From a virus, in the IMG/VR virus record IMGVR_UViG_3300020045_011333, positions 1 through 64,000 of that record: a DNA stretch of 64,000 nucleotides; one strand, written 5' to 3'. This document shows, one piece after another, positions 7,118 to 56,849 of the stretch. Under the pieces are notes generated by a model. The model was not told the DNA's origin, did not search any database, and saw nothing but the letters and a program-made list of their open reading frames with translations. Each line of letters opens with the position of its first letter. The stretch's first letter is position 1. The translations under genes were made by a program, and so were the position numbers.

Positions 7118-7519
7118 ATGACAAAATTTAAAATTGGTGATAGAGTTAAAGATATTTCAAATAGCTCACTTTCTACCGGCAGCATCAATGCTATGAGAGA
7201 AAATGAGGTTCAAATATTTTGGGATGATGAAAAAGATTTAAAGCTTGATCCTAATGAAAATAGTTTCTGGTCCGAAGATGATTTTGAATTAATTGAAGAA
7301 GCAATAGTTGATGTTGCTAGACCAAATAGTTTATTTGAAACTGTGACTGTCCCCGTTAGGGGTTGGCATGGTCAGCTTTTCGTTGATGGCCTAACTTATA
7401 GTGGTTCGGCGGTAAAAATCTCATTCAAAGAAGAGTGTCACGCCAGCAGTATGACTTCTAAACAATTAAGAGCTATGGCTAATACTTTGAATGAACTAGC
7501 TGATTATATGGATAGTTGA
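7118..7519 (+). CDS. modular hypothetical protein, paralog family A (shared C-terminal module)
   Basis: C-terminus ...RGWHGQL...TSKQLRAMANTLNELADYMDS aligns by eye with 18564-18902 and 30552-30947. Confidence 0.6.
   Translation: MTKFKIGDRVKDISNSSLSTGSINAMRENEVQIFWDDEKDLKLDPNENSFWSEDDFELIEEAIVDVARPNSLFETVTVPVRGWHGQLFVDGLTYSGSAVKISFKEECHASSMTSKQLRAMANTLNELADYMDS
7349..7364 (+). repeat. dispersed hairpin motif GTCCCCGTTAGGGGTT, copy 1
   Basis: Identical 16-mer at 7349, 19554 and 32340. Confidence 0.9.
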
Positions 7520-10159
7520 TGACTCAATATGAAGAAGATGAGAAATTGTGTTACGATGGTGCTATGGCGGTTTGGTATCAGAGTTTGAAGCGAAGTGACT
7601 TAACTGAAGAAGATCGCGTCAAAGGAGCGCTGCTGGCGTATCAAAGGCATTGGTTCGCGATAGTAGAACTACGAAAAAAGAAAATAACGGAATGTCACAA
7701 GCTATGACTGAAATAATTTCCTTAAAAGAATATAGAAATAAAATTAGTAGTGATTATACTAAATTTATCAAAACAGATCAGGACGGTATTACTATGTATA
7801 AATATGTCTTGAGCTATAATCTAGAAGGATCGTGGTGGAGCGGTGTCACGGTTTGGGCCTATTCTTTTGAAGATGCAGAACTAAGAGTTGCCGCTATGAA
7901 AGAGAGCTTGAATCTTGACGGCCAATTGATAGAGGAAATTTAGATATGAGAGATATCTATGAAGTTACTAATCAATTAGGTGGATATGTTGATCCTAGTA
8001 CCCCTGAACACTTAGCTAATTTTCTCTTGAGAGAAGCCTTTGAAGCTGAAAAATTGGCTCATGAAATTATTAGATTAAAGAATTTACTTGAAGCTATTGA
8101 CATTAAAGCTGAAGCAGGTCTTTGTTATTTTACTCTTGACAGTGCTAGAGCCTATCTACAAGACATTAGAGCATTAATTAAAGGAGACGTTTAATATGGG
8201 TTACTATGAAGTTGATACAACTGATAACAAAGAAGCTGAATTAGGTCGGAAGATTTACATGGAAGCTCTTAGTGGTCGTCGCGGATTTCGCGATGATCAA
8301 TTAGGTATTGAAGATGAAGATATTTGGCTGGAAATTTTTGAGGCTATTGGTCAAACGGCTCGTGAAGCTTTGATGAGCGAAGATAGTATTAATTTAGTTG
8401 ATCAAGATGAGCCTTTATCTTCTTACCCATCGCCCGAAACTAATTTGGAGGGTGATTGCCTGCCGAAGGGTCACGTCATCCTTGAACAGGCAGACATGCC
8501 GGACGGGCGCGTTTCTCAAATCGTTCGTGTCGCTGATGGCGCTGAATATGAGCGCATCGTTCACGCTGATGAAGCCTACGGAGTAGAAGAATGACAGCCT
8601 ACGCCATGTATCAGGGATGGGTGCTGAAAGAGATCGATGGCGTTGAAATTGATGGCAAGTCATACACCATCAAGCAGATCAAAGCCGCTTTGGAAGCCGT
8701 AGCCAAGTCACCCGCGCCCCAGACGAAGGCGATGGGTATTAAAAAAGAAAAATCCTCCCCTATTGACTTAGTGTCACGACTATTGATACCTTCTGATAAT
8801 GAGGAAGTTATGTCCGCTTGGGGCACATTAAGGGCTTATCTTCTTAAGGGTGGAAAAGGTTCTTACGCTAGAGATATTTTTGAAAATATTTTAAGTAATA
8901 TTGATGAAGAGCGAGAAGAAGCCGCTAATTATATTAAAGAATTAGAAAATAAAGAACCAATAGCGTGGTACAGGGAAAATTTTGTATTTAATTTTTCTCT
9001 AGGCCCAACGAAGCCAAAAAATGATACCGGCAATCCTTTGGAATGGAAACCACTTTATGATCATTGAAACATTAGGATATATTTTTATTGCAATTCTATC
9101 GTGGTACATCGGCGGAATGATTATTACTATCGTAATAGAAAGATTTACTAGACACATGGAAATGGCTTCATTAGGCGTAATGGTTTCTTTTCTTTTTGTC
9201 TGGACCGGACTTTGGATCGGTGGTACATTGATATTTATAGGAACAAGAATCGGGTAATTCATAGGAGGCTTAAATGTCATTGTGGGTCGTGGAAGAAAAA
9301 TATTTTATTGAGGATTATTATCCCGTTGATGTATTTCAAGGGGTTTTTACGACTATTGAACTCGCTCATCAATACATTGAAAAGCGCCGAGAAGGGCAAT
9401 TCAAAGAACATTGGGTAGATTATTTGCGAGAAAAATTTACAGATGAAGCTATGGAGCTTCATGCAGAAAAACTTGCTGAATTGTCTAAGCATCTTCGTAT
9501 TGAGCGAGAATCTAAGCCTAGATATAAAGGTTTAAATAATGATAAACTTGCCTTAGAATTTCATGCCAAGCTAAAAGAAGAATGGAGCCAGAGATGTGAA
9601 ATAGTTTCTGAAGCTTATCACGATTACATGGATAAATATATTTATGAACCTTCAAATCTTGCTGCGGAAAAATTAAAAGATTCTAATATTCCAATAGAGA
9701 TTAGAGAAAATTTTATTGAGAAAGAGCAAATCTCAGAATTTAAAATTACGGAGACTGAAACAGATATTGGTGTAATTAATGGTTGACACTAATCTTGGTT
9801 TGAAATAGATGTAAGGAAACTAATTGGAAAGGGATTTTGATATGACTAAATTTCTCGCAGAGGGTGATGTTATTCTTCTCACTAAAGATCATGTCGTGAC
9901 AGCTAGTGTTCCTTATCACTTTGCTTATCAAGGTCATAAAGGTAACTTTAAAAACTTCGCTAGGGTGCAAGTTAGACTATCTGATGATAATTTTGATTAC
10001 CTCAGAGGGATTTACATCGTAACGAAAACTGCCACAGATGGTGGCGGAACGGGGCATGGTCCCGGTGATGTTTATCCCGATGGTCATCACGTTCATTGCA
10101 TCAGCGAAGACGGTAAAAAGACTGTTGATTTTTATCAAAGTGGATCATTTATAGATATC

Positions 10160-10254
10160 ATCAAAGATATTGAACCTATTAGGAGGGCAGAATTGACATG
10201 GAAAATCAAAGATATTGAACCTATTGGGAGGGCAGAATTGACATGGAAAATCAA
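10160..10254 (+). repeat. 45-bp tandem duplication spanning an RBS and start codon
   Basis: ATCAAAGATATTGAACCTATT(A/G)GGAGGGCAGAATTGACATGGAAA twice; gives the 15-aa repeat IKDIEPI(R/G)RAELTWK. Confidence 0.95.
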
Positions 10255-12426: not shown

Positions 12427-12807
12427 ATGACCAGAATTAACTGCGTCCCTCCTACTATTTTAACCGTTAAACATCTCGTGGCAGAATATAGAGAACTGCC
12501 GCGAGTTTTTGGTTTAGTAAGGCAGGCTCAAGAAAAAGGCCTTGTCGTTTCTGATATTGACATTCCTTCTAATTATGTATTAGGTAAGGGTCATGTTAAA
12601 TTTTTCTACAACAAACTTTTATATCTACTTGATAGACAAATTTCTTTAATAAATGAAATGAAATCAAGGGGTTACAATCCTTTTCATGACAAGCCAGATG
12701 GTTTGATAGAAGGTTTGGATCGAATGTGGCTCAATAATTGGTTGCCGAATGAATCAGATCATGCTATAAACATGGCAAGACTAATTGAAAGAGGTCATAA
12801 TGGCTGA
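12427..12807 (+). CDS. denV: pyrimidine dimer DNA glycosylase / endonuclease V
   Basis: MTRINCVPP...HLVAEYRELPRVF...YVLGKGHVKFFYNKL matches T4 DenV hallmark motifs. Confidence 0.92.
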   Translation: MTRINCVPPTILTVKHLVAEYRELPRVFGLVRQAQEKGLVVSDIDIPSNYVLGKGHVKFFYNKLLYLLDRQISLINEMKSRGYNPFHDKPDGLIEGLDRMWLNNWLPNESDHAINMARLIERGHNG

Positions 12808-12864
12808 TTTTGTGGTCATTAAAGCAAAAAGAGGGTGTAATGACTGATTTTGTGATCATTAAAG
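12791..12864 (+). repeat. imperfect 40-bp-period duplication of a gene start
   Basis: ATGGCTGATTTTGTGGTCATTAAAG (12800) vs ATGACTGATTTTGTGATCATTAAAG (12840), each preceded by GAGG. Confidence 0.85.
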
Positions 12865-14174: not shown

Positions 14175-14546
14175 GTGATCTTTGAAACTCTAATAATCTG
14201 TGCCAGCCTATTCGTTGTAGATGGTGATACAGTTAAATGTTCAACAACGAAACAAAATCTTCGTTTACTAGGCGGTGGAATAGTTGGTGTATCAGGCATA
14301 GACGCTCCTGAGAAAGGATCTAGGGCTAAGTGCCACAGAGAGAGCCAATTATCAGAAAACGCTTCTAGCAGGCTGTCTCAACTACTCGCGCAAGGTATTA
14401 CTAGGATTGAGGCTAAAGGTATTGATAATTTTGGCCGTCCACTTGTCAATATTTATATGACAAGTGGATCAGAGGTGGGTCAAATCCTGTTAAAAGAAGG
14501 ACTGGTTAAGCCTTGGGTTAGAGGTAAACGGAATAATTGGTGTTGA
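14175..14546 (+). CDS. thermonuclease (SNase-like) family protein
   Basis: VVDGDTV, RLLG...GIDAPE, DNFGRPLV, GQILLKEGLV motifs. Confidence 0.85.
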   Translation: MIFETLIICASLFVVDGDTVKCSTTKQNLRLLGGGIVGVSGIDAPEKGSRAKCHRESQLSENASSRLSQLLAQGITRIEAKGIDNFGRPLVNIYMTSGSEVGQILLKEGLVKPWVRGKRNNWC

Positions 14547-19553: not shown

Positions 19554-19569
19554 GTCCCCGTTAGGGGTT
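19554..19569 (+). repeat. dispersed hairpin motif GTCCCCGTTAGGGGTT, copy 2 (in a 5' UTR)
   Basis: Lies between promoter TTGACT 19503 and RBS AGGAGG of the ATG at 19584. Confidence 0.9.
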
Positions 19570-20178
19570 TTAGGAGGCTAGTAATGAAACTATTCCATTG
19601 GTACAGTGACACGCTTAAACAATATATGTCGGGTCATATCATTGTTATGGCTAAGACAATTGAGGAAGCTAGGGATGTTGCATGTATTGAATTTGAGCTA
19701 TGGGCCAGACGTGAAGATTCTCATTTCACATGGATTTTTTGGAACGGTGAATTTTTTGACGAAGGTAGTCAAGATGAATGGTTCGAGATTATTACAAAAT
19801 TTAAGAATGATATCGAAAAAGAACCAATTGACAATGATGGCGCTATCTTTATAATGGGATCAGAATAGAGTTTAATACTTTTCCTCTCTGGAAGAGAAGA
19901 ATAGTAAAGGAGAATGATTTAATGGACGACCGTAGCTCTGCCTTTTCTGATTTTGCTAATGGCTTCCATCATGGTTATATAAAGCCTTGGAAAGCTGCTT
20001 CAATGCTTATGACACTGGATCAAATTCCAGCGATTAAAGAAGATCGCGATAGAATGATTAAGTATGTCAGTAATTGTCTTGAGATGGAAGGTTTTGAACC
20101 TGAAACTTGTGTCATTATTGCAGATTATTTGATTGACGGTCAGGTTTAAATGTGTTAAGTTATAGATATAAAATAAAA

Positions 20179-20475: not shown

Positions 20476-21459
20476 TTATTTTTTCTTTTTATTTCTAAAA
20501 TTATCAGTTAAGGAGTGACAATTAGCACACAAAAGTTGTAAATTTTCAACTTGGTTATTAAGTCTGTTACCATCAATATGATGTAATTCTATTGGAATCG
20601 GAAATCCATACCATTCAGAAAGATTACATGGGCCTTCGCACTTATGTCCTCTATCTGTAGTGAGATGTTTTCTTACATGATGATTATTACTATATTTGGA
20701 CCAATCTTTTAATTGTGCTCCTTTTGTCCAAGCAGAGCCAGTCCAATGAGAAGTATCCACTTTTAGTCTGTGAAGATTTCTTTTCATGTTATCAAAATTA
20801 CCACCAGCTTCTCTAAGACCTAAACTTCTTAATAAGCCTGAAATAGAAAATACGTGTTTGGAATTTTCAATAATATCTTCATCTGTGTAATTTTTATAAT
20901 TAAAAATTTTTGCTCTATTAGATTTATCTACTTTTTTACAATCTAAAGATTTACAAATATTGTTTTGATCCAATAAGCCTTTTCTAATTTTAATATCGGC
21001 GTTACAAATGTAGCAATTTGAATTAGTAATTAATAATCTATCTGACTTAGGTTTAATTGGACGTTTTGTTTCAGGTTTTTTATATCCTTCCCATCTTTTG
21101 GCAGCTAAATATTTAGCGCTATCCTGTTTAATGGCTGCTTGCCTTAATTTTTCTTTTGTCCCTTCTGATTTTGGTCTACCATTAGCACAAGTTCTAGAAC
21201 AGAATACACCTTGTTTAAAATGTTTTTCATTGCATTTCGGACAAAATTTTTCTATAATTTCTTTAACAAAAGAAAAATCTATATTTAAATCCTCTAATAT
21301 TCCATTAATTTTAGGTCTTACTCTTCCAACATATTTAGTACCAAGAATTTCTGCAAACTCCCTTTTCGATTTACAATTTTTGGCAATATTAATTAATTCT
21401 TCTACTGTATAATTTTTCTTATGAAATTTATAAATTTTTATTTCTTGGCATTCAAACAT
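20476..21459 (-). CDS. free-standing HNH endonuclease with Zn-finger and NUMOD3-like segments
   Basis: C-terminal IELHHIDGNRLNNQVENLQLLCANCH; CPKC...FCSRTC; RPKSEGTKEKLRQAA. Confidence 0.9.
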   Translation of the reverse strand: MFECQEIKIYKFHKKNYTVEELINIAKNCKSKREFAEILGTKYVGRVRPKINGILEDLNIDFSFVKEIIEKFCPKCNEKHFKQGVFCSRTCANGRPKSEGTKEKLRQAAIKQDSAKYLAAKRWEGYKKPETKRPIKPKSDRLLITNSNCYICNADIKIRKGLLDQNNICKSLDCKKVDKSNRAKIFNYKNYTDEDIIENSKHVFSISGLLRSLGLREAGGNFDNMKRNLHRLKVDTSHWTGSAWTKGAQLKDWSKYSNNHHVRKHLTTDRGHKCEGPCNLSEWYGFPIPIELHHIDGNRLNNQVENLQLLCANCHSLTDNFRNKKKK

Positions 21460-23942: not shown

Positions 23943-24025
23943 GGCGCTGTAACCGTTCTTCTCTTCTAAAGAAGTAGACGTAATTGGAGTTGAAAATGCG
24001 GGTTCGATCCCTGCCAGCGTCTCCA
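23943..24025 (+). tRNA. non-canonical D-armless tRNA-like RNA with UCU (Arg) anticodon loop
   Basis: Acceptor GGCGCTG/CAGCGTC+T+CCA; only 8 nt before CTTCT-CTTCTAA-AGAAG; 23-nt variable region; T-arm GCGGG-TTCGATC-CCTGC. Confidence 0.7.
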
Positions 24026-25216
24026 TCACTCTAAAAATTGATTATAAATCATTTCTAAAATTGCAGGCTTATTTACTTCATAATAATTAACTCTAAGAAC
24101 TTTCCATCCTCGCTCAACCATTGCATAATCTCTTAAAATATCATGCTTCCTCTGTGCTGGTTTTTCGTGATGTTTTCCATCTACTTCTATTATAAGTTTC
24201 TTGTTTTTGATAACAAAATCTAAACGATAATATCCATATAAATTATAAGGGCTTTTAGCATACACTTCATTTCTAAATCTAACATTTTTACTTACAAGAA
24301 AATCTTCAAATTTTTGTTCTAACTTAGATTTCCTTCGAAATAAAAAATTTTCCCCCGTTGCTATTCTTTTTCTAACTAATCTAGTGCCTTGTAACTTGGA
24401 ATTAATTTTTAAACATTCATCGGAACAAGTAACCCGTTTACCTGAAGGTTTTGAACATATTTTACAATTCAGTTTTTTAGGTTTATTATAAATTCTATTA
24501 TAATTAATGATATTAGGCTCTATGCCATCATTTTTATCTTTTAAATGTCTATTAATTGCAGCACATGTTTTTGAACAACAGAGACCATTTTTAACATGTT
24601 CATTATAACAAATGATACAATATTTTGTTTCTGGAGTTTTAAATTTTACTATTTTAGGTTTAAACTTTATTCCTTCTTTATTTAAAAATACCCCTAGTAT
24701 TCTTCTGTTAGTTTGATTAGTTTTTAAGTTTAAAGATCGTAAAAGTTCAGCCATATTTCGGCAAATTTTAGCATTCTCTAAAATGGTTGTTTTGTCTAAA
24801 TTCAATCTAATAAAGTTTATCTCATCATCTGTTGTTTTAAATTTATTTTTAAATTCGGGTTCAGGCATATTTTTAATTGTAGAAATTATAGATTTTCGTT
24901 GTTTCTCTCTTGACTCTTTACTTCTAATGGAATTATTATAAATTGCAGCACATGAAGAGGAGCAAAATTTTTCTTGATACTTAATTAAAACTTCTTCACA
25001 TGTGAAGCATTTTCTGATAGGCTTTTGTTTACTTAATTTTTTATTTAATAAGAATTTAGTAAGATCAATATCATATTTTCTTATTTTTCTATTAAGAGTT
25101 CTTAAATGGCTACTAGTAACGGGTATATTTAAAACTTTTAAAACAGAGTTAAATTCATAGCAATTATTCATTGTTTCTTGTAAAAGCTCTTTAGTATAAT
25201 TATGTATTTTACTCAT
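24026..25216 (-). CDS. free-standing endonuclease, DUF559/Vsr-like PD-(D/E)xK domain with N-terminal Zn-finger repeats
   Basis: YRLDFVIKNKKLIIEVDGKHH...DILRDYAMVERGWKVLRV; three CxxC...CSxxC motifs. Confidence 0.82.
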   Translation of the reverse strand: MSKIHNYTKELLQETMNNCYEFNSVLKVLNIPVTSSHLRTLNRKIRKYDIDLTKFLLNKKLSKQKPIRKCFTCEEVLIKYQEKFCSSSCAAIYNNSIRSKESREKQRKSIISTIKNMPEPEFKNKFKTTDDEINFIRLNLDKTTILENAKICRNMAELLRSLNLKTNQTNRRILGVFLNKEGIKFKPKIVKFKTPETKYCIICYNEHVKNGLCCSKTCAAINRHLKDKNDGIEPNIINYNRIYNKPKKLNCKICSKPSGKRVTCSDECLKINSKLQGTRLVRKRIATGENFLFRRKSKLEQKFEDFLVSKNVRFRNEVYAKSPYNLYGYYRLDFVIKNKKLIIEVDGKHHEKPAQRKHDILRDYAMVERGWKVLRVNYYEVNKPAILEMIYNQFLE

Positions 25217-25357: not shown

Positions 25358-25434
25358 GGAAGGTTAGCCAAGTCTGGTAAGGCTCTTTGCTCATAACAAA
25401 GCGATCACAGGTTCAAATCCTGTACCTTCTACCA
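25358..25434 (+). tRNA. tRNA with CAU anticodon (elongator Met or Ile2)
   Basis: GGAAGGT/ACCTTCT+A+CCA; CTTTG-CTCATAA-CAAAG; T-arm ACAGG-TTCAAAT-CCTGT; promoter TTGACA at 25318. Confidence 0.92.
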
Positions 25435-32339: not shown

Positions 32340-32355
32340 GTCCCCGTTAGGGGTT
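32340..32355 (+). repeat. dispersed hairpin motif GTCCCCGTTAGGGGTT, copy 3 (at the convergent junction)
   Basis: Identical 16-mer overlapping the stop codon of 32347-32703. Confidence 0.9.
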
Positions 32356-32703
32356 TTGTTCCGCAACTACAACGTTTACCGCCTCAACTTTTTTCTTATC
32401 TTCTAATAGCTTCTCTGTGTCTTCATGTTCCGCGCCAATCACTTCATTCGTCATATCAGCGGCTTCTATAATCTTATCAAGCTTGAGGTGTAGCGCGATT
32501 TCTCCACGTTTAGTAGATACTAGCACGGCAAGGCCAACAATCATTGTGAAGACAGATATGGAAACGTTAAGGATGGTTGAATCTAGCTGGAAGATTAGGG
32601 CTAGAGCGGTTATGATGACTACAGCGATGAAAGAGATAGGCTTAGACATTAGGTCGGAAAAGGCGTTAACTGCTTTTTCTAAGTAGGAAGAGATGGTTTT
32701 CAT
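32347..32703 (-). CDS. low-affinity iron permease family small membrane protein
   Basis: Two hydrophobic helices followed by STKRGEIALHLKLDKIIEA, like the family motif ALHxKLDELI. Confidence 0.7.
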   Translation of the reverse strand: MKTISSYLEKAVNAFSDLMSKPISFIAVVIITALALIFQLDSTILNVSISVFTMIVGLAVLVSTKRGEIALHLKLDKIIEAADMTNEVIGAEHEDTEKLLEDKKKVEAVNVVVAEQNP

Positions 32704-33021: not shown

Positions 33022-34125
33022 TTAAACATTTTTGTTTTCTCCTGAAATATTTCTAACCGTTTTTCCAATCGTCTGTTCGGATAATTTAAATTTTGAAGCT
33101 AAAACTGTGTAAGTAACATCACCTTTAGCATATGCCTTTCTAATTTCATCATAAGTTTCATCATTTTCTACTTTCGCAAAAACATTATTTGATCCTGCAT
33201 TTCTTTTTACAGTATTTAACATATTTTGCTCACACTGTCGAAATTTATCTTGTTTTTTAGCATGATCCATGTTATATGTATGATCACAAGGTTCCAAATT
33301 AGATAATTCGTTATTTTTAGCGTTACCATCTATATGATTAATTAGCGGTGTCTCTGGCGATGGATATCCTTTAAAATACACATAAACTAATCTATGAGTG
33401 GACATGTGGTGAACTTTACCATTTAGAGATTTAGATACTCTAAAATACCTCTCTTTTTTACTTAAAGATGTACCTATAAAATTACCTGTAATGGTATTTA
33501 ATACTCTACCATCTTCAAATACTTTAAATTCTCCAGATTTAGCACAATTTAATATTACAGATTCACTTTCGTAATTAATTTTTGTATGTTTAGGAATAAT
33601 TACTTCTGGCATAGCTACATGTTTATAAGATTTACCTAAAACTGCTTGCATAATAGTTGATTTATTAGAATTAAATTTCTCGCAGAGTTTTTTATAAGAA
33701 TAATCTCCAGAGGCATAAATACAACGCATTTCCCATACCTGCTCATTAGTAAAATTACGGTTAGTATTTTTAGTTCCGCGAGCTACAGCGTGAGCATTAT
33801 TTTCTTGACTTGTAACTACTTCTAGATTATCAATATGATTATTAGTTCTATCACCATCTATGTGGTTAATCCATTGACGGTCTTCTGGTATAGGTCCATT
33901 ATACATTAAATAAACTAATCTATGAATAGGAAAGTTTCTGGGTTTTCCAAATTCTTTAAAATTATAAGTTACGTAATGATAACCATCTGGTTTAGGATTT
34001 TCACTTAAATACCTATTTAAAAGTTTACTAAAAACTTTACCTTCGCGAGTAACTTCATAAAGATTGGTATTACTAAATAATTCTAAAAATAATTTTTCTT
34101 TTTCTCTATTAACTGGCATTGACAT
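33022..34125 (-). CDS. HNH homing-type endonuclease with two tandem HNH+HTH units
   Basis: HRLVY...INHIDGDRTNNHIDNLE and HRLVY...INHIDGNAKNNELSNLE, each followed by an HTH-like segment. Confidence 0.88.
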   Translation of the reverse strand: MSMPVNREKEKLFLELFSNTNLYEVTREGKVFSKLLNRYLSENPKPDGYHYVTYNFKEFGKPRNFPIHRLVYLMYNGPIPEDRQWINHIDGDRTNNHIDNLEVVTSQENNAHAVARGTKNTNRNFTNEQVWEMRCIYASGDYSYKKLCEKFNSNKSTIMQAVLGKSYKHVAMPEVIIPKHTKINYESESVILNCAKSGEFKVFEDGRVLNTITGNFIGTSLSKKERYFRVSKSLNGKVHHMSTHRLVYVYFKGYPSPETPLINHIDGNAKNNELSNLEPCDHTYNMDHAKKQDKFRQCEQNMLNTVKRNAGSNNVFAKVENDETYDEIRKAYAKGDVTYTVLASKFKLSEQTIGKTVRNISGENKNV

Positions 34126-34350: not shown

Positions 34351-36024
34351 TTACGCCGTAACGGTTCCTGTTTGATTTTTTTGCTCATGTTTCAATCTCT
34401 CTTCCTTTTCTTTATTTTTTCTCATCATTTCTTCTTCAATAGCTTTTTCTACAGCATTTCTACGCCATTCACTAGAAGGCGCGGACCCCGCGCCGTGGAG
34501 TTTTTGAGTGCCGCCTTTTCTAACCCTACCTCTAGCCCATTCTAAATATTGGCTTGTGGAATCCACAGCATCATCAAACTGGCCATTAGGAAAAGAAAGT
34601 ATTTCTTTTTCATAGTCTGCTACCCAATTAGCACGTTCTGGAATATGAATCAAGCCTGCTTCAAACATTGGTGCCACAGCGTCCATTCTAAATTCTTTAG
34701 AATTATTATTAGTAGAAATAGCTATAACAGGCGTAGTTGATCTACTTTGCTTTAATTGTATGTAACTTGTACCTGAACCTTTGTCTTCAACTAAAATTGC
34801 TGAAGCTCCCCAACGTTCGGCAGTTAAATCAACTTCTTTAATTAATTCTGGCAACTCTAATTTTTTTCTGACCATATCTAATAGGTAGTGATGCCCTGTA
34901 GCCGTTTCGGCCCAAGTAGTTAAAACACTAAAATCGTTGCGCTCTCCTTTTTTCTGCGCTGAGTCAACAGATAAAGTAATTCTTCTAATTTGAATAGTTT
35001 CATCTTTTCTTGGATCATTACTATATTTTTGAAACCATATTCCTCTAATTAAACCGCCTTCACCATCTAACGGCTCACCTTGATAGATAGCGCTGAATTG
35101 GTGAGTAGTCATAGAATTTCTAAGATTAATATAATGCTCTGCCGGGTAATAATCCCATACAGTTTCGTCAACTCCTTTTCTTCCAATAGGGTCGTTTTCA
35201 GGAATTCCGTCAGATAAAGCTTTTAGATTAAAATATTCATAAGGAATCATTTTTCCTTTTTTAGATTCTTCTAATAAGAATCCGATGAGATCATTTTCCG
35301 AAAATCTCGTATTTACGATCACAATAGGTGCTCTAGGAAGTAAGCGTGAGCTAAAATCTGCAAGGAACCAAGTTTTCGCGGTTTCTCTAACTTTTGGGTC
35401 TTGTGCATCATCCCAAGATGAATACAAATCGTCAATAGCACCTATTGATGCGCGAATTCCAGATATTCCGCTCCCGACGCCACGTGCCAAATACTCAGAT
35501 TTGTTAGTCATGGCCCACCGTGCACCGGCTCTAGCGTCAGCTAATAGAGCGCAATCTGGAAATATATCTTTGTATTCATCAGATGTAACATAAGCTTTAG
35601 TTTTTTTACCTAACTCACCTTCAGCAAATGTGGCATTATAACTAGCTTGAAGCCATTTTACCTTACGCCTTCCCATGGCCCAAACAGCGAATCTTCTTGA
35701 AGAGTATTCGGTTTTACCGGCTCCGGCACAAACGCTTAACGCGAGTCTTGGTATAATTCCTTCTTCTACAAGTTGCAATCTCTCACATATAATATGATGA
35801 TGGTAAGCAGGAGGTTCTTCCATATTTAAATATTCGGCAAAACAAGAATAATTATTAAAAGAGTTTTCTCTTAATTTATTTTTATATTCTGCTTCATAAT
35901 GCTCAATAAAACTTTGAATTCCAGCTAATTGTCCGTATGGATCGCTAGTCTTCGTCAACTCCGTTATAGCTGATATGTACTGGTTCGGAACTGGTTTCGG
36001 GAAGATTGATCGGAACGAGTCCAT
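34351..36024 (-). CDS. terL: terminase large subunit
   Basis: ATPase motifs GAGKT and IDD; nuclease motifs SVDSAQ...DFS and DDAVDSTSQ. Start placed at ATG 36024 (GGAGG 8 nt upstream). Confidence 0.92.
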   Translation of the reverse strand: MDSFRSIFPKPVPNQYISAITELTKTSDPYGQLAGIQSFIEHYEAEYKNKLRENSFNNYSCFAEYLNMEEPPAYHHHIICERLQLVEEGIIPRLALSVCAGAGKTEYSSRRFAVWAMGRRKVKWLQASYNATFAEGELGKKTKAYVTSDEYKDIFPDCALLADARAGARWAMTNKSEYLARGVGSGISGIRASIGAIDDLYSSWDDAQDPKVRETAKTWFLADFSSRLLPRAPIVIVNTRFSENDLIGFLLEESKKGKMIPYEYFNLKALSDGIPENDPIGRKGVDETVWDYYPAEHYINLRNSMTTHQFSAIYQGEPLDGEGGLIRGIWFQKYSNDPRKDETIQIRRITLSVDSAQKKGERNDFSVLTTWAETATGHHYLLDMVRKKLELPELIKEVDLTAERWGASAILVEDKGSGTSYIQLKQSRSTTPVIAISTNNNSKEFRMDAVAPMFEAGLIHIPERANWVADYEKEILSFPNGQFDDAVDSTSQYLEWARGRVRKGGTQKLHGAGSAPSSEWRRNAVEKAIEEEMMRKNKEKEERLKHEQKNQTGTVTA

Positions 36025-36778: not shown

Positions 36779-37306
36779 TCATGCTAAGTCGCCAATCAAT
36801 GTAAACTGTTTTTCTAACTTATAGCCTAGGTTGCAGAAGCCATAAAATGCAATCAAAACTGCTTCAGCGCGACCATCATCCATTTTCCTAGCCCAAGCCT
36901 TAGAACATTGTGGAAAATACTGAGACGCCCTGTAACGAGCCGCGTCTTTTTCTGCTGGGATTTTAAGTTCTGATTTCCATTTCTGAGGGCGAACTTGGGT
37001 AACAGGAACTCTTAATCCGGCACAACAGCCTAGAATAGCTCCGAATCTACTTCCGAATGAGAATGAGGATACTACACCTTCTCCGGGTCTTGCATTGACT
37101 TCTTCAACGTATAGGTGAAAAATTTTTTCATCATCTAATATATTAGCCATACCGGAATGATCTAAAACAGTTTTCTTTTTTACGCCTGTTTTAATTTCAA
37201 ATGTTGGCATATCAAAAATTTCTATGGTATAATTAACAGGATCAAGCTTAGCGAACGCTCCTTTAGCTCCGGGGTCTGCTCCGCAGATAATTGTACTTTC
37301 ACCCAT
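36779..37306 (-). CDS. RuvC-like Holliday junction resolvase
   Basis: GADPG, YVEEV, SFSFGSRFG, WKSEL, DGRAEAVLIA RNase H-fold motifs. Confidence 0.85.
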   Translation of the reverse strand: MGESTIICGADPGAKGAFAKLDPVNYTIEIFDMPTFEIKTGVKKKTVLDHSGMANILDDEKIFHLYVEEVNARPGEGVVSSFSFGSRFGAILGCCAGLRVPVTQVRPQKWKSELKIPAEKDAARYRASQYFPQCSKAWARKMDDGRAEAVLIAFYGFCNLGYKLEKQFTLIGDLA

Positions 37307-38012
37307 TTTTAAAACTTTCTAATAACGCAGGGTTGCCCCAAATCTCATCGATTTCAGCTTGACCTCTGATTTGAGATTCTACAGCGTCTTCTATATTTTT
37401 CTCATATGAGTAATGTTCATATTTACCATTGACATAAACTCTAACAACGTATAAGTTTTTAAGTTTAAACTCATACACGCCTTTGTGATTTGTTTCGCGC
37501 TCTTCGCTATTATTTTGGGCGCTGGCTTTAGTGATATAGGCGTGGAGGTTGTAATGGTTCAGTTGAGTTTCGGCCCAATTCACAGCATCTTTTTTATGTT
37601 TTTTACGAGTACCTTTATAAAGATGAGGGTAGTGCCAAATCTTTACGCCCCAATACTTTCCTTCTTTCCTAACTAGATAGTTTCCTAATCGCTTTGTATT
37701 GAGTGAGGAAGCGTATACCAGATTATCTCGGCTCAGGTTCTTCAGATTGCCGTCTATCGCTTCAATAGGCTCTTTGGGCCAATGACCATACATAAGGAGC
37801 CAAGCCAAGTGGTGTCCCTGAATATTAGTCCTATTAAAACAAGTTACCAGAGTATCTTTATCGGGGAAATCGGAGCGCTTCACAACTTTCCAACCACCAG
37901 CGCCATGATAGCGATAAATTTTACCCGTCTCTTCCTCGTAACGAAACTTGGTCTTTAGTATCCTAATATCGACATCGGGATACATGTTAGAAAAATTATA
38001 AACCCGGCCCAT
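37299..38012 (-). CDS. degenerate HNH + AP2-like DNA-binding protein
   Basis: HHLAWLLMYGHWP then IEAIDGNLKNLSRDNL (expected IDHIDG..NN..NL); C-terminal HKGVY...VRVYVNGK AP2-like segment. Confidence 0.7.
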   Translation of the reverse strand: MGRVYNFSNMYPDVDIRILKTKFRYEEETGKIYRYHGAGGWKVVKRSDFPDKDTLVTCFNRTNIQGHHLAWLLMYGHWPKEPIEAIDGNLKNLSRDNLVYASSLNTKRLGNYLVRKEGKYWGVKIWHYPHLYKGTRKKHKKDAVNWAETQLNHYNLHAYITKASAQNNSEERETNHKGVYEFKLKNLYVVRVYVNGKYEHYSYEKNIEDAVESQIRGQAEIDEIWGNPALLESFKNG

Positions 38013-39089: not shown

Positions 39090-39523
39090 TTATAATTACT
39101 ACTTTCACTTTACTAGTTCTAAATTTTTCGGCGGGACCGTGCGTTAGCACGGTGTTACCTGTTCAACTACTTTTATCCAATAATTTCTAATTTACTATGT
39201 TCAAGTTTCTAATCCGTAATTACCCATCCTAGCATATGTTTTCTCGTTTGTCAAGTTTTATTTAATTTGGTTATGGATTAGCAGCGTTAAACTCATATTC
39301 TCTTTGAGAGATGATAGCTAAATTCTCGGTTAATATCTTATATTTAACCTGTTTAGGAATCGTGGTTCCATTTTTCATGAAATGCACTTCAATTTTCTTA
39401 TCATGAGCCGGGGAGTAAGCGAGGATATTGTAAATACCTACTGTGCCTGCGGGTAGGCTTTCATGGTCGTTTAGGAGTTGAACAAACACTTTCTTTTTCC
39501 TTATTTATGAGAAAGAAATTTAA

Positions 39524-40366
39524 TTATCTCTTTCTGTTAGATTTAATTTCAATTGGGGATTTAAATTTAACTTTATTGTTTTCTGGCGTGATAACTATTT
39601 TTCTGATACGATTATTTACAAAATTATTATCTCCATAGAATTCACAATCTTGGAAATATGTGTTAAGTAAATAAGCACCTTCAAAATCACAGTCAGAAAA
39701 AGTGCAATAAAGAAATCTACACTTAGTGAAATTAGTAGATTCAAAGCTAGTATTCTTAAAATCACAATGGAGGAAAACAGACATACTTAGATTATCTTTA
39801 TCATAAGATTCACTCGTGTATTCTCGCTCTACTGACGCATCTTCTAATTTATATCCAGCGTTATAGAATATAGTTTTGAATTGTTTTCTTTTGAATTTTT
39901 CTTTCTCATTAGTTGTTTCGAAAAACTCCCCGGTCCAATAACAAACTGTTCTAAATTTATCTAATCTCTCGACAGGTTTTTTATGGCTTAATATTCTATG
40001 TTCGGCGCAGCAAAATTTTTGGTCATGGCGTGACTTTGTGAATTCTTCTAGGCATTCTTTATATTCACAAATACTAATTTTGTATTTTGACTTACGGCTT
40101 ACACGATTCGTGGCAGTCCTATGTCTTCTGCTATAAGCCATGGCGTGAGCGGGGCAGCAAAAATTAGCGGGCTTATAAATTTTCTCTCCCTGATTAATAG
40201 GTTTATCACATTCAGGCAGTTGACAAACTTCTGGTACGAATTTAAACTTACTCATCCTGTTATAATGAGCCGTCCTATGCTCGATGCAGCAAAACTTAGC
40301 ATTGCTTCGATCCGCGATGAAGTTTTTGGAGCATGGTGCGTATTGGCATTTTCTTGTAATCTGCAT
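39524..40366 (-). CDS. Cys-repeat (Zn-finger-like) + pentapeptide repeat protein
   Basis: Three C-x4-C...FCC-x2-H units, then FLHCDFKNTSFESTNFTKCRF... repeats. Promoter TTGACA-N17-TACAAT at 40427-40399 places the start at ATG 40366. Confidence 0.75.
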   Translation of the reverse strand: MQITRKCQYAPCSKNFIADRSNAKFCCIEHRTAHYNRMSKFKFVPEVCQLPECDKPINQGEKIYKPANFCCPAHAMAYSRRHRTATNRVSRKSKYKISICEYKECLEEFTKSRHDQKFCCAEHRILSHKKPVERLDKFRTVCYWTGEFFETTNEKEKFKRKQFKTIFYNAGYKLEDASVEREYTSESYDKDNLSMSVFLHCDFKNTSFESTNFTKCRFLYCTFSDCDFEGAYLLNTYFQDCEFYGDNNFVNNRIRKIVITPENNKVKFKSPIEIKSNRKR

Positions 40367-40989
40367 ATCAATTCCTATAAATTCTGTATCAGGAACGAAT
40401 TGTAACACTAGTTTCCAAATTTGTCAAGTATTTTTCTTATCATTTTGTATTTATCTTATAACTACTTGAAAACGCTCACTATTTTGATTGTACTCATCAA
40501 ACTAAACGTTAATTATTGTAACTCATAGATTTTTGTAAAAGTATCAGAAAAACCACCCCCTAATTTTTGAAGCGTCAAAATAGATAGGCATCAAAATATT
40601 GCTACAAAATGAACCAATTTTCTTTTTAAAACTTGTTGTTTATATCTAAGTTACTGAACAACATAGATAATTTCTTTAAAGATTGTCATATTAAATGTTA
40701 TATGTTTAGGTGCATTGAATCAGTTTTAAAAGTGTGTCGTTTTTCTTTTATCATTACAACTGAGTGTCTGCAATGAACTTTTAATTTTATTTATTCTTCT
40801 TTATTTATATAATAAAAACAATATCTTACTAATAATAAACTCTTTTTAAAAAGAAAATGGGTTCATTTGCTGGCAAACCAAAGTAGTACTTTTTACGGTA
40901 TTTTTGAAAATGCTTCAAGAAAAAGGTTGTAACAATTTTTATGACAACCTTTAAGAAAAACAACAGCACAGAAAAAACATTGAGTGTGA

Positions 40990-41256
40990 GTGAAAACGAG
41001 AACGAGAGTACCCCCCCCTCCCTAATAAATTAAAGAACGAGAGTACCTCCTAGTAGATGAAAACGAATGTCTTTTCTCTCTTCCGTTAAATGTAGGAGTT
41101 AAGGAATGTACACCCCTCCCTTAATAAACTAAAAACTAATGTCTGTCCCCAAATAAATTAAGAGATGAATGTCTGTCCCTTAATAAACTAAAAACTAATG
41201 TCTGTCCCCAAATAAATTAAGAGATGAATGTCTGTCCCCGTCAGGGGGGAGGGTAC
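40990..41256. repeat. iteron-like direct repeat array in the divergent intergenic region
   Basis: AATGTCTGTCCC at 41138, 41168, 41197, 41227; perfect 59-bp duplication 41121-41238; AACGAGAGTACC twice; C8 tract; imperfect inverted flanks. Confidence 0.9.
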
Positions 41257-41348
41257 AAAAATTTATTATCTTGAATCCTCATTTTTATATTGACGGGAAT
41301 TTCGAGACGCTGTAGTTTGAGTTTATTAAAGATGCAAAGGAGAACTTC

Positions 41349-41669: not shown

Positions 41670-43718
41670 AAAAATAAAATTTAATTTTCCTTGAAAGAAT
41701 TTCAAGGAAGATTTGACAAGGGCCTAGGTTACTGGTAATCTTTTTATAGTTTCAAAACGAACTCATGCAAAAATTACATTAGTTCAAAAATAGGAGAACA
41801 TCATGCCTCATTATCGTCCCACTCGCCCCGTAAAGCGCCTCACAACGAAGGAAGAGGTTCAAGTCGTCTTGGATCGCTATCATGCCGGAACTGAGCCAGT
41901 GACGCTTTATGGTGTGACACAGATGGGTTATGTAGAACCTTATGAACTAATCCCTAGCTCTAAGATTATTTATGAGCCATATGCTACTGGTGATGGAGGC
42001 ATTCATAAGGTTGATTGTCTTAAAACTTCTACCCTAGAAGGTGATAAGAAGTATCAGTGGGATTTCTTTCTGGAATCATTTGGTATCGTTGAAGATGCTT
42101 ATGCAACTGAGTTTGCTTTGTTTGAACATGAGGCAGACGCTTTGGCTTATTCAGAACTGTTGAAGGCTGATGAGCGCTACATAACTAGTGTTAAGGAGCA
42201 TTGGGCTATGTGTGACGAATTGTTTGAAGGGTTGGATTACGCATATGAATATGAATATGAGGAAAAGTTGTGATGAAAACTACAATCATGTATTGGGTTA
42301 AATTTGATCTTCCTCTCTATGTCAGATATCATCCTAAAGTAAATAATATTTCTATTGAGAACGAAGAGGGTTATGATCCTCACGGCCACAGCCCTTCATT
42401 TTGTTGCTGGATCGTTCCGGGAACTGTTGATCCTAATGAGGATTGAAAATTATTTATCTTGATCTCTGACTTTTTCTGTGATAAGAATCTGCTATAAAGA
42501 AACAATTAAGGAGAATATTATGATTGCTAATAGATTGGTACTAACTGTTTTGTTTAAGAATGGAATTGAAAAGACTTATTCAGGCTCAGTTATTGAAGAT
42601 GATAAGCTTGATATAGTTCATAAGGAGCTACCCAATATTAAAAAATTTGTTGGTGATGTTTATAAAGAAGGCTCAACAGCAAACTTAGAGATTGGTGATA
42701 CCATTATTAATATTTCTGAAACTGTATCTATTAATTTTCGTATCGGATATAGTTACTAAAACTTTTATCTTGACTCCTCACTTTTTGTGGTGCATATTAG
42801 GTCAGATGTAAGAAATAAAAGGAGAAATAATTGTCTTTCACTAACAAATCTGAGATGCATTTTAACACCTCAAATTATTTTCCTAACCTTGACCGGCACA
42901 AAAATTTCTGGTGCACCGCTAAGATTAATGAAGATGGTGAAACCTATCGTATTCACATGTGGGCCGATCATGTTCCTAGTGTTGATATTTCGAAGTGCAC
43001 CAGCCCGGCTTATGAAATTGTAATTCTATGGGATAATTGGAAATCTGAAGTTTCTAAGATTGTTGTTGACAAGGCTTAGTCAACTCTATAAGTTGAATGT
43101 ATTAAAGGTTTAAAAGGAGAACACCAAATGCCAGTAGATCGCACGACTTACACAAATGGCTCAGGTCGTCACGCCTATGAAGTTGAAGTCTACCTTAATA
43201 AGGACGCGAGAAATGTTTCTGACTTCCGTCGCCTCACATTTGAGGTCCATGCCGTTAATCGCACCGTAGCGGCTGTCAGGCTAGAACGTGATGGGTATGA
43301 GGTATGTAGTGTGAATATGGTAGGGTGAAAACCCTAACGGGACAGACCACACCTATCATACCTATCATACCTCAATATAGAACAATACAACAATACAGAC
43401 CATCCAAACCCTCACCACCGCACCGTAGGAGATATCATGAAAGTTGTTTATATAGTCGAGCAAGATTCTGGTTCATATGGGCGTTATGTTGCAGCAGTTT
43501 TCAGTGAAGAAGCTAAAGCAGTAGAATATTGTAAAAAGAAAAATGGTGGTTACGCTAGTTATTCATATGATGCAATGGTTGTTGATCAGGAGGGATAAAA
43601 TGTTTATATAAGCCCTTGACTCCAACCTAAATCTTTATTACATTTAAATCGTAGAGAAATCTTGAAGAAGATTATTTAACAAGGGCCTAGGTTGCCCAAA
43701 CAGAAAAGGAGAATTGTA

Positions 43719-45322: not shown

Positions 45323-45351
45323 AGATTATCAAAAGTTTGATTCCATGTCAA
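45323..45351 (-). promoter_or_regulatory. leftward sigma70-like promoter
   Basis: TTGACA (45351-45346)-N17-TAATCT (45328-45323) on the minus strand. Confidence 0.55.
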
Positions 45352-46963: not shown

Positions 46964-47004
46964 GAGTGGCTTTTTCAAACTCTTCACAAATAAGGATTAA
47001 TCGA

Positions 47005-47592: not shown

Positions 47593-47929
47593 TAATGGAT
47601 AACTTTATAGAAAGATTAGAACAATATATTGAATCAATTGAATACTTAAGAAAAAAGTATTTTACTGATAAAAATTATTTACCTGATGAGGCTAATCCCA
47701 ATCTTTCCTATGAAGTTGAAAAGAAATGGGTAAAAATTTATAAAATAGATTCTGAAAATAATATTATAGGTGTTTTTGCCTTTGTCGAAATTGATACAGG
47801 AAATATATTCGAACGGGCAAATAATCCTAAAGCCCCAAGAAAAAACAAAATTAAAGGAAATATTTTCTCGGAAGAAAACGGATTGGAATCTGTTAAGAAA
47901 ACTAATCCTAATTATTTGATTTAAACCTC

Positions 47930-53900: not shown

Positions 53901-55719
53901 TAATTTTTAAAAAATTAAACTAAAAATAATCAAAAAACGATCAAATTTTTCCAGCATCTTCCCACCTTGGAAAATTGCACCGCTAAATAGTTGATTTTTA
54001 GAAGATTTTACCCCTAACGGGGTCACAACCCATGATATATAGGCAATATATCCTCAATATTTAATTAAATTTAGCTAATAAAACCATTAAAAATATTATC
54101 ATATAAGGATATCTTAATATGATTATTTAAAAGTTTGCTACCATGACAAATCCCCTCCTGACGAGCAGATCAATAAATAAATTTTTAATTATTGCACGTG
54201 CAATAAATGCCTGTGACTCAAATGTAAGAAAACGAAAAACTGTTTACCCGGCTAACAACAATCGATTGATTATTTTCCTAATTAGAAAATGCTAATGTAT
54301 AAGTCATTGATATCATTACGTTTATTTTCTTACTTTTACAATGTAAGATTCTGAAACATTCATGACTTGTTTGCTACCTTGTAATGACAGGAACAAAAAA
54401 CCTCAAAATAGCCTGTATTTGGTTGAATTTTTTAAAGATTCAGGGTTTACATCTGGCTCGAAAGGTTTATATTAAACTTATAGAAACAAGGAAACACGGC
54501 AATGATGACGATTGAAACCGCGATTGAAGTTTGCAAGAAAATGCGCGCTACTCCTTTTAATCTTCAAACTGAAGCTTTGCGCGCCGAATTCAAAATCGCT
54601 TCGGAAGTTCGCCACAATCATTCGATGGAAAATGATGCTTCTTATCGTCGCGGTTTTAGGCAAGCTTATAATGGCTTGGCCGTTGGAACCGGCAGACTCG
54701 ATCTAGTTGGAAAGCATGGTTAATTGTGTTTAGATTAGTGGCGCTGAGCAAAGCGCCACATTTCTAAATGCATAGGGCATTTAATTAAGAGGAGCTAAAA
54801 CAATGCCTAAGTTCGCAGTAACTCAAATTCAGACTCGCCATGTAATTTATACCATTGAGGCAGAATCGGAGGAGCAAGCAATTGAAAGCTTGAACAATTC
54901 TTTTGATGCTATGAATGATTTTGACGGAGTCGTGGAATGGTCCGGCGATGCTGAGACTATTGCCGAAGAAATCGAAGAATAAAATATCTTTCAACTGAGG
55001 AAAAACAGCAATGACTCATATTCACAATGAACTGGCTCAAGAAATCGTTTCGGCAATTGGTGAGACTCGATTTGAACTAAAGACTTATTCTAGCTCAAAA
55101 GCTAATGCGCAAGCCAATCTTAACGGCAGGACGCATTATGTTGATGACGATACATTGAAATACTTTCATTCAAAGATTGCTTATTCTAACGATTATGAGA
55201 ATGGAACTATTTTCGCTTTGGTGGAATCTTGCGCCGCTGACATGGATAACCGCAATCGTGGATTCCGTTTCGTTGTCTTTGATCTATTCGGAACCGTAAT
55301 AGAGAGGCGCAAGAGCAGTGATTTGTTCTCAACTAAGGATAAAGCCAGAAAAGCGCTTAACACCTTCTTTGAAGACTTTGACGCCTTGGAACACTATAAG
55401 CAAGCCATGGCGGAACGCGCCGAACGGCTGGCAAATGATTCAAAACGCCTTGCGGCTCAAGTTGCCAGAATGGGAGGAGAATGAATTTGTGGGCGTTTGT
55501 TGGGTTTCTTGCGTCATGCCTTATGCTATGGCTTATTTTCCCGCTATAGCGGGCCGCTAGGAAGCGTTTCCGGGTTAAACCGTGTCGCACTAGCCGAAAT
55601 GATGAATCGCGTTGTATGGGGCTTAAATCAGGTTTTATGAAATGCGATTTATTTTCTGTTTTCTTACATTTTCTTGTTGACGAATCTTTTTAAAGATTCT
55701 ATAAATTAATCATCGAAAC
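47930..55719 (+). promoter_or_regulatory. family of early promoters with ATCGAAAC at the predicted +1
   Basis: ATCGAAAC begins exactly 35 nt after the first base of the -35 hexamer at 47930, 49866, 50464, 51020, 51898, 53330 and 55677. Confidence 0.85.
53760..54440. promoter_or_regulatory. ORF-free cis-element cluster
   Basis: AAAGTCAACCATTTTGAT twice, CCCCTAACGGGG, 18-bp palindrome TTATTGCACGTGCAATAA, ATGTAAGAAAA. Confidence 0.6.
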
Positions 55720-56849
55720 AAGGAAACGAACAAATGGAATTTAACGGCGCAATCCTCACTCGTAACAATGAATTTAACGTTCGCGTTGAAATGTATAACA
55801 CGTTGATGGAAAAGGAAGTTTATTCTGTATTGTTTGACGATGAAAAAAATGAAATTCTTAATCGCGTTTCAGTCCGTCGCGGTCAAGATAAAAAAGGCGG
55901 TTGGAAATGGGGAACGTTGAATAACAATGCTCATTCCGGCCAAATTCGCCGCGTTGTTTCCTTGGTTAAGCAATCGGGGATTTAATCCCCCCCCCCTAAC
56001 GGGGTCCACTATTAGCCTAGCGTCCTGCTAGGCCCTGCCCTCTCTCACACAAAGGCCCTATGTACCATGGAAAAGCTTATCCTAATCCTTATCCTCAATG
56101 CCCCTAACGGGGATATACAGGCCACACGCTATGCCATAGCAGACCGCCCTACATGCGAAGCTAAGGCGGCATGGTACAATGACCCATCCCATAACCCTAT
56201 CGCGTACCATGACGCCCTAGGCCCTATCTATAGGCACAATGCAATGTGTGTCAGTGCTGCTGCTGCTAATAGACTGGTAGTTGTAAAGGATAATTAGTGC
56301 AACTATGTACGATTGTTATTGATCTATTGTTTAATCTATTATAGATTATAGATAGGTACACACATAAAGGAACTAGTCATGCTACTCACCTTCATTCCTT
56401 CGATCCTCTGCCTTGCTCTTGCGTTGCAAGCCGGTATGCGTGGCGAACGTTATGCCAGAACCAACGAAACACTAGCCGCTGTTACACTATTGGCTGTGCC
56501 TATGTGGTGCGCCATGGCTGTAATGGTGGGACTCTCTGGTCTTCTCATTCATTAAACAATAGATATAGGCTATGCGCTAGACGCATAGGCCACGGCATAG
56601 GACAACGGAACAATGATTAAATCAATCGCTCTTATCCTTATCATTTGGAACCCTGTTAATGATACTGAGTCGGAAATGGTATATGGAACATATACATTAG
56701 AAGAATGTTTAATAAAAGAATATGAAATAAATAAAGAAGACAGCATTATAAATAAAAAATTAAAAAGAAATAAATTAGAATTGAATGCGACATTGTGTGA
56801 GTGAGTCGTTATGTAGTGAAGTCTAATACAATGTTTAGTTGAATTAATT

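Follow-up and report, generated by a model that had tools for sequence, protein, structure and literature searches.

Short DNA hairpins with C/G stems and a loop that reads G..A on one strand are distributed over a large phage genome, and their strand orientation switches at a single intergenic locus, hereafter called X. The DNA analysed was positions 1 to 64,000 of the IMG/VR record IMGVR_UViG_3300020045_011333 (hereafter the window), the opening 64 kb of a phage contig of 184,940 bp whose ends overlap by 121 bp. Left of X, which lies near 41 kb, the motif is on the plus strand, and right of X it is on the minus strand. The feature is real and conserved, it is defined by its structure, and it is strand-polar about this one locus. 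Our tentative reading, possible but held at less than even odds, is that the hairpins resemble the single-strand initiation (ssi) sites of plasmids and that the primase-SF3 helicase encoded by the phage loads or primes at them, X being the origin.

The most frequent form of the motif, the 12-mer CCCCGTTAGGGG, was found six times, on the plus strand at 7351, 19556 and 32342 and on the minus strand at 54011, 55993 and 56101, and the three plus-strand copies share the 16-mer GTCCCCGTTAGGGGTT. In 100 dinucleotide shuffles it was not found once. The original prediction, made from the letters of the window, had estimated that composition would yield far less than one copy, and this is borne out; its coordinates for the copies, the variants and a longer hairpin at 39136 were also correct throughout. 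Words of the form CCCC-N4-GGGG number nine in the whole genome, where about 0.2 would be expected from the counts of 185 CCCC and 180 GGGG, and the opposite arrangement, GGGG-N4-CCCC, is absent from the whole genome. A G..A loop on one strand is present in all nine (GTTA in six, GTCA in two, GATA in one). GTTA loops in general are not enriched, and the enriched class is confined to C/G stems. Two of the nine words lie outside the window, at 133815 (+, GATA) and 166380 (+, GTCA). With a 3-bp variant at 43331 and a 7-bp GTTA hairpin at 39136, the nine words form a set of eleven copies, so that the stem is 4 bp long in nine of the eleven. A hairpin at 146387 is an ordinary terminator and was left out of this count. 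On a circular map the set reads as a run of seven plus-strand copies (133815, 166380, 7351, 19556, 32342, 39136 and 41236) followed by a run of four minus-strand copies (43331, 54011, 55993 and 56101), and the interval from 56 to 133 kb is free of copies. Across the full genome the orientation is thus non-random and switches at X. The flanks tGT (5') and TT(TT) (3') are common to seven copies, including 43331 on the minus strand, and the array unit AATGTCTGTCCCC ends in them too; they are missing from the three copies at 54-56 kb.

Coding does not explain the copies, as had been argued from the window, since sites are intergenic, overlap a stop codon or lie within open reading frames (ORFs). 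On the plus strand, the copy at 7351..7362 (flanks ctGT...TT) lies in ORF 7118-7519 and is translated V-P-V-R-G. That at 19556..19567 is intergenic, 6 nt 5' of the AGGAGG ribosome-binding site of a gene starting at 19584, and that at 32342..32353 occupies a convergent gene junction, its loop containing the TAA stop of the minus-strand ORF 32347-32703; both are followed by TTTT. The 7-bp hairpin ACCGTGC-GTTA-GCACGGT (39136..39153, +) is located between two minus-strand genes and has the same loop and arm polarity as the other left-arm copies. At the strand-switch point stands the X hairpin CCCCGTCAGGGG (41236..41247, +), with a G-run next to it. On the minus strand, the variant TCCCGTTAGGGT (43331..43342) is flanked by gtctGT...TTTT, and the copy at 54011..54022 is intergenic within the early-gene block and antisense to the plus-strand genes there. 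The copy at 55993..56004 comes directly after the stop of gene 55734-55985 and is followed, on the motif strand, by a G10 run, in the manner of the X hairpins of relatives, and that at 56101..56112 lies in ORF 56067-56297, translated A-P-N-G-D-I. The three in-gene antisense copies (56101, 133815 and 166380) are in the same phase and translate as (T/A)-P-x-G-D-(M/I); in a T4-type RNA ligase gene the motif takes the place of a variable segment, which is APLHSM in a relative. Copies 133815 and 166380 also share a longer word, GCATGTCCCCGNNAGGGGT. HNH homing genes are found 0.7-0.9 kb from the copies at 19556 and 32342; the other copies have no such link, and this proximity was judged a coincidence.

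Locus X (40409..41348) is a 940-bp divergent intergenic region of 30% GC that contains AT-rich DNA, a C-run/TAATAAA repeat and four AATGTCTGTCCC(C) units spaced 29-30 bp apart. An array with a 30-bp period spans 41117-41239, and its last unit is completed into the hairpin CCCCGTCAGGGG at 41236, which confirms the earlier observation that the array ends in a motif variant and that its unit is the left arm of the motif. The architecture of X is kept throughout: the window and all relatives have, in order, a pentapeptide-repeat gene pointing away, an AT-rich stretch of 0.6-0.9 kb, three to five direct repeats and the hairpin. The 5' arm of the hairpin belongs to the last direct repeat (ATGTCT..TCCC core), and a G-run often comes after the hairpin, varying in relatives from 1 to ~7 extra G. 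One relative (L010) carries GTCTGTCCCCAAA, which is the array unit of the window. No DnaA boxes were found at X in any relative, and few k-mers besides TTTGTCAAG are shared. In relatives a sigma70-like promoter, TTGCAx-N17-TATAAC, follows the X hairpin after 1-7 nt in most and 11 nt in L010, and in the window the sole promoter-like site at X, TTGACG-N17-TAGTTT, is ~55 nt downstream of the hairpin. With its iteron-like repeats and AT-rich DNA, X resembles an origin more than a terminus, and in our tentative reading it would be the replication origin. The pentapeptide-repeat protein (39524-40408, minus strand) always adjoins X in relatives at an identity of only 24-26%, and is a candidate for the X reader or for a topoisomerase modulator.

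Relatives of the phage were found through TerL homologues of 60-65% identity, which led to syntenic contigs. Two of these, G001 and G002, are 120-kb IMG/VR records with ~80% DNA identity to each other and were read whole, and the pentapeptide gene served as the common frame for left and right of X. A phage collection gave no nucleotide match to this phage, an IMG/VR scan with a single TerL sequence gave no match, an exact search with the 16-mer returned three contigs, all unrelated, a metagenome scan matched a single 1.9-kb fragment, and no public sequencing run was listed as containing the 39.5-43.5 kb region. The hairpin class is present in all relatives read, and in every one of them the copies left of X, the X hairpin included, are on the plus strand and those to the right on the minus strand. 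G001 has eight plus-strand GC-rich copies over 75 kb including X, one of which, with a GTCA loop, is an intrinsic terminator and not a motif copy, and minus-strand copies at 97138 and 99336. Plus and minus copies number three and one in G004, and one and two in both L011 and L012. A second conserved site, (T)CCCCT-GTCA-AGGGG(A), lies on the opposite strand ~15 kb right of X in relatives, and the minus-strand variant at 43331 is its positional counterpart in the window. Three sites are kept within diverged flanks between G001 and G002; between the window and G001 the site positions differ and the polarity is unchanged. A blind prediction was made for the primase loci of three further relatives, and the eight GC-rich hairpins of the c(GN(N)A)g type were without exception on the predicted strand, with the reservations that one of them (L148 16875) is the siteA intrinsic terminator, at a junction already noted to carry one, and that the three sites of L147, which is near-identical to G002, are non-independent. 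The original prediction had named random orientation over the full genome, or loss of the motif in close relatives, as refuting it; neither holds, the orientation being non-random and the relatives keeping the motif class together with locus X and its switch of strand.

The nearest cultured relatives by TerL are the phages Lacusarx, DSS3P8 and Microcystis Mwe-JY26, at 35-39% identity, and the genome encodes the portal, tape-measure and tail proteins of a large siphovirus (Pfam and/or PHROGs scans). The first 50 kb of phage RXM (61% GC) are without the CCCC/GGGG class, and no word is shared at its two stated repeat boundaries. Both RXM (OL963731.1, 13.5-14.5 kb) and Lacusarx (KY629563.1, 115.0-115.8 kb) have a ~1-kb iteron-rich divergent region upstream of terS/terL; the RXM repeats are GATTTCTCTCCTGCGGGGAATT and hold a weak c(GCA)g hairpin on the terL strand.

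The polarity of the motif is set by position relative to X, not by transcription. Genes of the contig fall into four strand blocks: a plus block from 168.3 kb across the contig origin to 32.3 kb, a minus block at 32.3-40.4 kb that holds the terS/terL operon with HNH genes, a plus block at 41.3-101.2 kb with early small genes and then structural genes, and a minus block at 101.3-168.2 kb. The motif is sense to local transcription at 7351 and 19556 and antisense at six copies (43331, 54011, 55993, 56101, 133815 and 166380), and in G001 the plus-strand copies occupy both a minus-gene and a plus-gene block. The terL module lies right of X in relatives and left of X, inverted, in the window, and despite this inversion its copies at 32342 and 39136 carry left-arm polarity. 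That polarity was kept through both site turnover and module inversion argues for selection. What the hairpins seem to mark is the direction of DNA replication or end processing, not of genes. In this respect the core of the original prediction, a strand-specific signal at the DNA level oriented about 41 kb, is supported. A simple one-strand T5-type nick pattern and a uniform packaging-direction signal, forms that its suggestions of nicking and packaging might take, do not fit because the motif changes strand. The move of the terS/terL operon and the convergent DUF8224 block (25.5-40.4 kb in the window, 82.3-96 kb in G001) is symmetric across X and preserves the relation of each gene to the X axis.

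Across copies and relatives the loop is GTA, GAA, GTTA, GTCA or GATA and the closing pair is always C:G. The stems vary (CCCC, CCCCC, CCCGC, CTTTCGC, TACCGC and GTAGCCCC), and the spacing between CCCC and GGGG within one genome is 3, 4 or 6. Forms in relatives include CCCCGTCAGGGG, CCCCGTTAGGGG, CCCCCGTAGGGGG, CCCCGAAGGGG and (T)CCCCT-GTCA-AGGGG(A), and GTCA loops are found there also on the GC-rich stems CCCGC, CTTTCGC, TACCGC and GTAGCCCC; among tetraloops on GC-rich stems, GT[CT]A is the most frequent in every genome compared. A GNA or GNNA loop closed by C:G is the signature of extraordinarily stable DNA mini-hairpins (PMC13037366), and the motif belongs to this class of loops. Such mini-hairpins are present at the primase-dependent origins of G4 (GCGAAAGC) and of St-1 and alpha3 (GCGTTAGC), in RSF1010 ssiA (CCGAAGG) and in N4 early promoters, and they exclude single-stranded DNA-binding protein (SSB) and resist exonucleases (PMC13037366). 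Variable stems and variable spacing fit a folded single strand better than a rigid duplex dimer site, and since a 4-bp stem is unable to extrude from a duplex the signal should act on single strands. The motif thus fits better as a hairpin formed in single-stranded DNA (ssDNA), presumably also in vivo, than as a rigid duplex operator or an RNA element.

The enzyme that we propose as the reader is a 1068-aa primase-helicase (149316-152522, minus strand) with a DUF5906/SF3 helicase domain, which together with PolA is among the replication genes. Its C-terminal helicase is of the SF3 class: it matches the helicase domain of the NrS-1 primase-polymerase by sequence and by fold, and further fold matches of the protein model were to poxvirus E5/D5, African swine fever virus (ASFV) PrimPol and SaPI5 primase-helicases, all of the same class. 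The N-terminal half contains invariant DxD, THSH and Cys/His motifs. SF3 helicases translocate 3'->5'. Left of X the motif is carried by the top strand and right of X by the bottom strand, so a 3'->5' helicase loaded on the motif strand, or a primase copying it, would move away from X on both arms, and with forks leaving X the motif strand would be the leading-strand template; the SF3 class of the enzyme supports such a direction. Replication would begin at the X copy, and the ~ten copies scattered over the genome would permit renewed loading or priming in the direction of fork travel. A precedent is found in RSF1010, where the ssiA and ssiB hairpins lie on complementary strands beside iterons and are read by a primase of the AEP fold (PMC8567376). 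The wider proposition, that this lineage of large siphoviruses marks replisome direction with ~ten polar mini-hairpins around an iteron-hairpin locus, serving SF3 loading or priming on the leading-strand template, is a conjecture that we regard as somewhat doubtful.

Several observations weigh against reading the hairpins as loading signals with X as the origin. Nearest-neighbour DNA folding gives -3.9 kcal/mol for the motif strand and -3.6 kcal/mol for its complement, so that both strands fold about alike; the 4-bp stems are weak by these energies, and their special stability, which the model does not reproduce, is taken from the literature. Compensatory stem changes were not seen at orthologous sites, where the stems are identical, and the terminator among the eight plus-strand hairpins of G001 shows that not every such hairpin is a motif copy. 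X could equally be a terminus or lie near physical ends. Raw GC skew follows transcription, and a two-arm scan of GC skew at third codon positions (GC3 skew), which the structural module drives and confounds, has its best switch points at 44-58 kb and ~110 kb and not at X. Read as in bacteria, the G-rich strand is the motif strand, which would make it the lagging-strand template and X the point of convergence. Finally, the X hairpin of relatives abuts a -35 box and the loop of the right-arm site holds TTGACA, so a promoter role for these two sites is possible.

If forks, or the ends of a linear genome, instead converge at or near X, the strand with the hairpins would serve as the lagging-strand template and would also have its 3' end at the nearer terminus, and the hairpins would act as an entry site for a G4-type primase, as a block to 3' exonuclease or as a Chi-like signal for end protection or end replication. 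We consider this unlikely. Read 5'->3', the motif does point toward X on both arms, as Chi and KOPS point toward the terminus, and when third-position skews are taken block by block the motif strand is the G/T-rich one in G001 and, weakly, in the window, but structural genes dominate the skew scan, and Chi sites are short, non-palindromic and present in many copies. The known blocking of exonucleases and exclusion of SSB by mini-hairpins (PMC13037366) would suit such roles, as would the direct terminal repeats of 10.5-11 kb next to terL in Lacusarx (PMC5648845) and RXM (PMC8953757). A possible end was also seen in the window, in a conserved non-coding element of 140 nt at the boundary between the early block and the structural genes (56851..56990, GGAGGGACCC..GGGTATACCC..C10..ACCCTTACCCTCAAAAAAATTT). 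The same element is at the syntenic place in G001 (~109340-109470). It is similar to the start of the RXM record, GGAGGGCC..GGGTATACCC, of which the first 10,992 bp are the terminal repeat, and the Lacusarx record, which ends near GGGTATCCCCTTACCCGAAAAAAT, has a related sequence at its end. Judged by these similarities, the element is a candidate physical terminus or terminal-repeat boundary. All minus-strand copies fall between X and this element, and C-runs of at least 8 occur only three times in 185 kb, at 41011 (X), 55987 (copy 55993) and 56951 (the terminus-like element). This confinement and these C-runs suggest that the early block at 41-57 kb may be a terminal repeat, bracketed by inverted hairpins with G-run tails. 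If that is so, however, the second copy of the repeat at the right end would have the motif on the wrong strand for converging ends, and X, with its iterons and AT-rich DNA, looks like an origin.

The same bracketing would suit programmed single-strand nicks in the style of T5, Pseudomonas phage tf and phiKMV-like phages, made by the HNH protein of the terminase operon and/or the terminase, and we regard this as improbable. Opposed sites at the boundaries of a terminal repeat would let strand-displacement synthesis duplicate the repeat, and the inverted G-run-tailed hairpins at 41236 (+) and 55993 (-) do bracket the early block, its likely position. The HNH gene at 37299-38012 is kept in the terS/terL operon of all relatives, and nick consensus sites of other phages are also few per genome and strand-specific (PMC3517423). 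The strand switch speaks against nicking, and the distant copies at 133815 and 166380 would need another reason. To our knowledge, phage nick systems place their nicks on one strand only. Four HNH-type endonuclease genes, all on the minus strand, are present in the window (20476-21459, 24026-25216, 33022-34125 and 37299-38012); the last is the only one of the four kept in the terminase operon of relatives, and the remaining three resemble homing insertions that stand alone. A weak second tRNA match (23943-24022, 33 bits against a gathering score of 29) adjoins one of these genes, and ARAGORN reported only a tRNA-Met at 25358-25434.

We find it distinctly improbable that the motif is a duplex operator for a phage regulator, or an element embedded in promoters, with its polarity a by-product of the layout of early promoters around X. 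At particular sites the association with promoters is close: in relatives TTGCAx-N17-TATAAC begins 1-11 nt after the X hairpin, the right-arm site has the sequence CCCC-TTGACA-GGGG and, 17 nt downstream, a -10 box, and the G001 copy at 35734 lies within the spacer of TTGACA-N17-TACACT. Most copies in the window, however, have no promoter in a fixed register and four are in coding sequence, so that a promoter-linked operator is plausible at X and at the right-arm site and implausible for the coding copies. A scan of 1-20 kb for promoter and terminator consensus sequences gave nothing informative. The spacings of 3, 4 and 6 in one genome and the unrelated stems with the same loop are a poor fit to a rigid dimer, and strict polarity is not expected of a near-palindromic operator.

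It is very improbable that the motif acts in RNA, as a terminator, attenuator or processing or stability hairpin, or is a functionless remnant of gene conversion or a mobile element, since in the window as in G001 its orientation to the transcribed strand changes from block to block between sense and antisense, its 4-bp stem is too weak for termination, its flanks are not repeated and its polarity survives site turnover and module inversion, for all that T-runs follow four to five copies on their own strand (including 19556, 32342, 133815 and 43331), 32342 ends a plus-strand operon, terminators of these phages use GNNA loops too and the complement in L011 and L015 is C(UUCG)G. True terminators near motif copies look different from the motif, and membership among intrinsic terminators was rejected on the mostly 4-bp (<5) stem, the T-run after only four to five copies and the six antisense copies. 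Rfam at its gathering score gave only two tRNA matches in the window and none at the motif. The Y1 (HUH) transposase family PF01797, which marks IS200/RAYT elements, had no match in the genome and did match control genomes, which argues against REP/RAYT or IS200-IS605 hairpins.

Chi, KOPS and Ter are polar DNA words that organise bacterial chromosomes, and ssi hairpins start the replication of plasmids and ssDNA phages. Structure-defined polar mini-hairpins over both arms of a large double-stranded DNA (dsDNA) phage would link these two ideas and, if the reading holds, would be a hairpin-based counterpart of primosome-assembly, Chi or Ter systems, undescribed for any virus; a literature search found no comparable dispersed, polar mini-hairpin system in a phage. 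The motif may serve as a marker, readable from sequence, of the replication or terminus axis in uncultured phages, and in annotation the in-gene copies are to be read as a DNA-level constraint on protein sequence. The idea is directly testable insofar as a candidate reader enzyme is named, the motif is only 12-16 nt long and the distant relatives Lacusarx and RXM are in culture.

Among known systems, the nick sites of T5, Pseudomonas phage tf and phiKMV-like phages are similar in that they are few, strand-specific consensus sites in phages with terminal repeats (PMC3517423); their consensus is not known to be a hairpin, and the present motif is known from sequence and changes strand at X, so it was not placed among T5-type nick sites. 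For the hairpin promoters of N4, which are hairpins on the template strand read by a virion RNA polymerase, 15 of 20 sites compared would point with the local genes and 5 of 20 against them, the promoters seen are sigma70-like, and no phage RNA polymerase was identified among 30 large ORFs (Pfam and/or PHROGs), no exhaustive search for a virion RNA polymerase (vRNAP) being made. The iterons of the phage P4 ori and crr are read by alpha, a fused primase and 3'->5' helicase, and the second cis site is kilobases away. P4 therefore resembles the present phage in pairing iteron clusters with a fused primase-helicase, and differs in that its sites are duplex, with no hairpins and no genome-wide polar copies. 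Chi, KOPS and Tus-Ter share an orientation that flips at one locus, and Ter in particular comprises ~ten sites in two opposed groups, but all are non-palindromic duplex or single-strand words and not hairpins. Chi and KOPS are present in hundreds of copies, and Chi is read by RecBCD or AddAB and oriented with replication. The motif, a palindromic stem-loop with only ~11 copies, is Chi-like in polarity alone and was not placed among Chi sites.

Closer likenesses are found among primase-dependent origins. Those of G4, St-1 and alpha3 have a stable ssDNA mini-hairpin at the priming site, and GCGTTAGC of St-1 and alpha3 has the same C-GTTA-G loop (PMC13037366); they are single sites in small ssDNA phages that use host DnaG, in contrast to the many polar copies in this 185-kb dsDNA phage. 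The RSF1010 ssi sites differ in that two 40-nt sites serve one origin, as against ~ten short copies over >100 kb here, in that no sequence similarity extends past the loop, and in that RSF1010 uses a DnaB-like helicase in place of an SF3 primase-helicase. Full membership of the ssi class was therefore not assigned: 12-16 nt are conserved as against ~40 nt, the flanks are unrelated and the primase is of the D5/NrS-1 type (no direct search for RepB' homologues was made). The likeness to ssiA and ssiB lies in c(GAA)g-type loop hairpins beside iterons and AT-rich DNA, arranged as an inverted pair and read, in this phage putatively, as ssDNA by an AEP-fold primase (PMC8567376, PMC13037366), and L011 and L015 carry CCCCGAAGGGG where RSF1010 ssiA has CCGAAGG. 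Two of the corresponding features are found here: every copy has, on one strand, a mini-hairpin whose loop is of the c(GNA)g or c(GNNA)g type, and the X hairpin (+) and the right-arm site (-) form an inverted pair on complementary strands in the window and all relatives. X also has direct repeats and DNA of 30% GC, and may be an origin.

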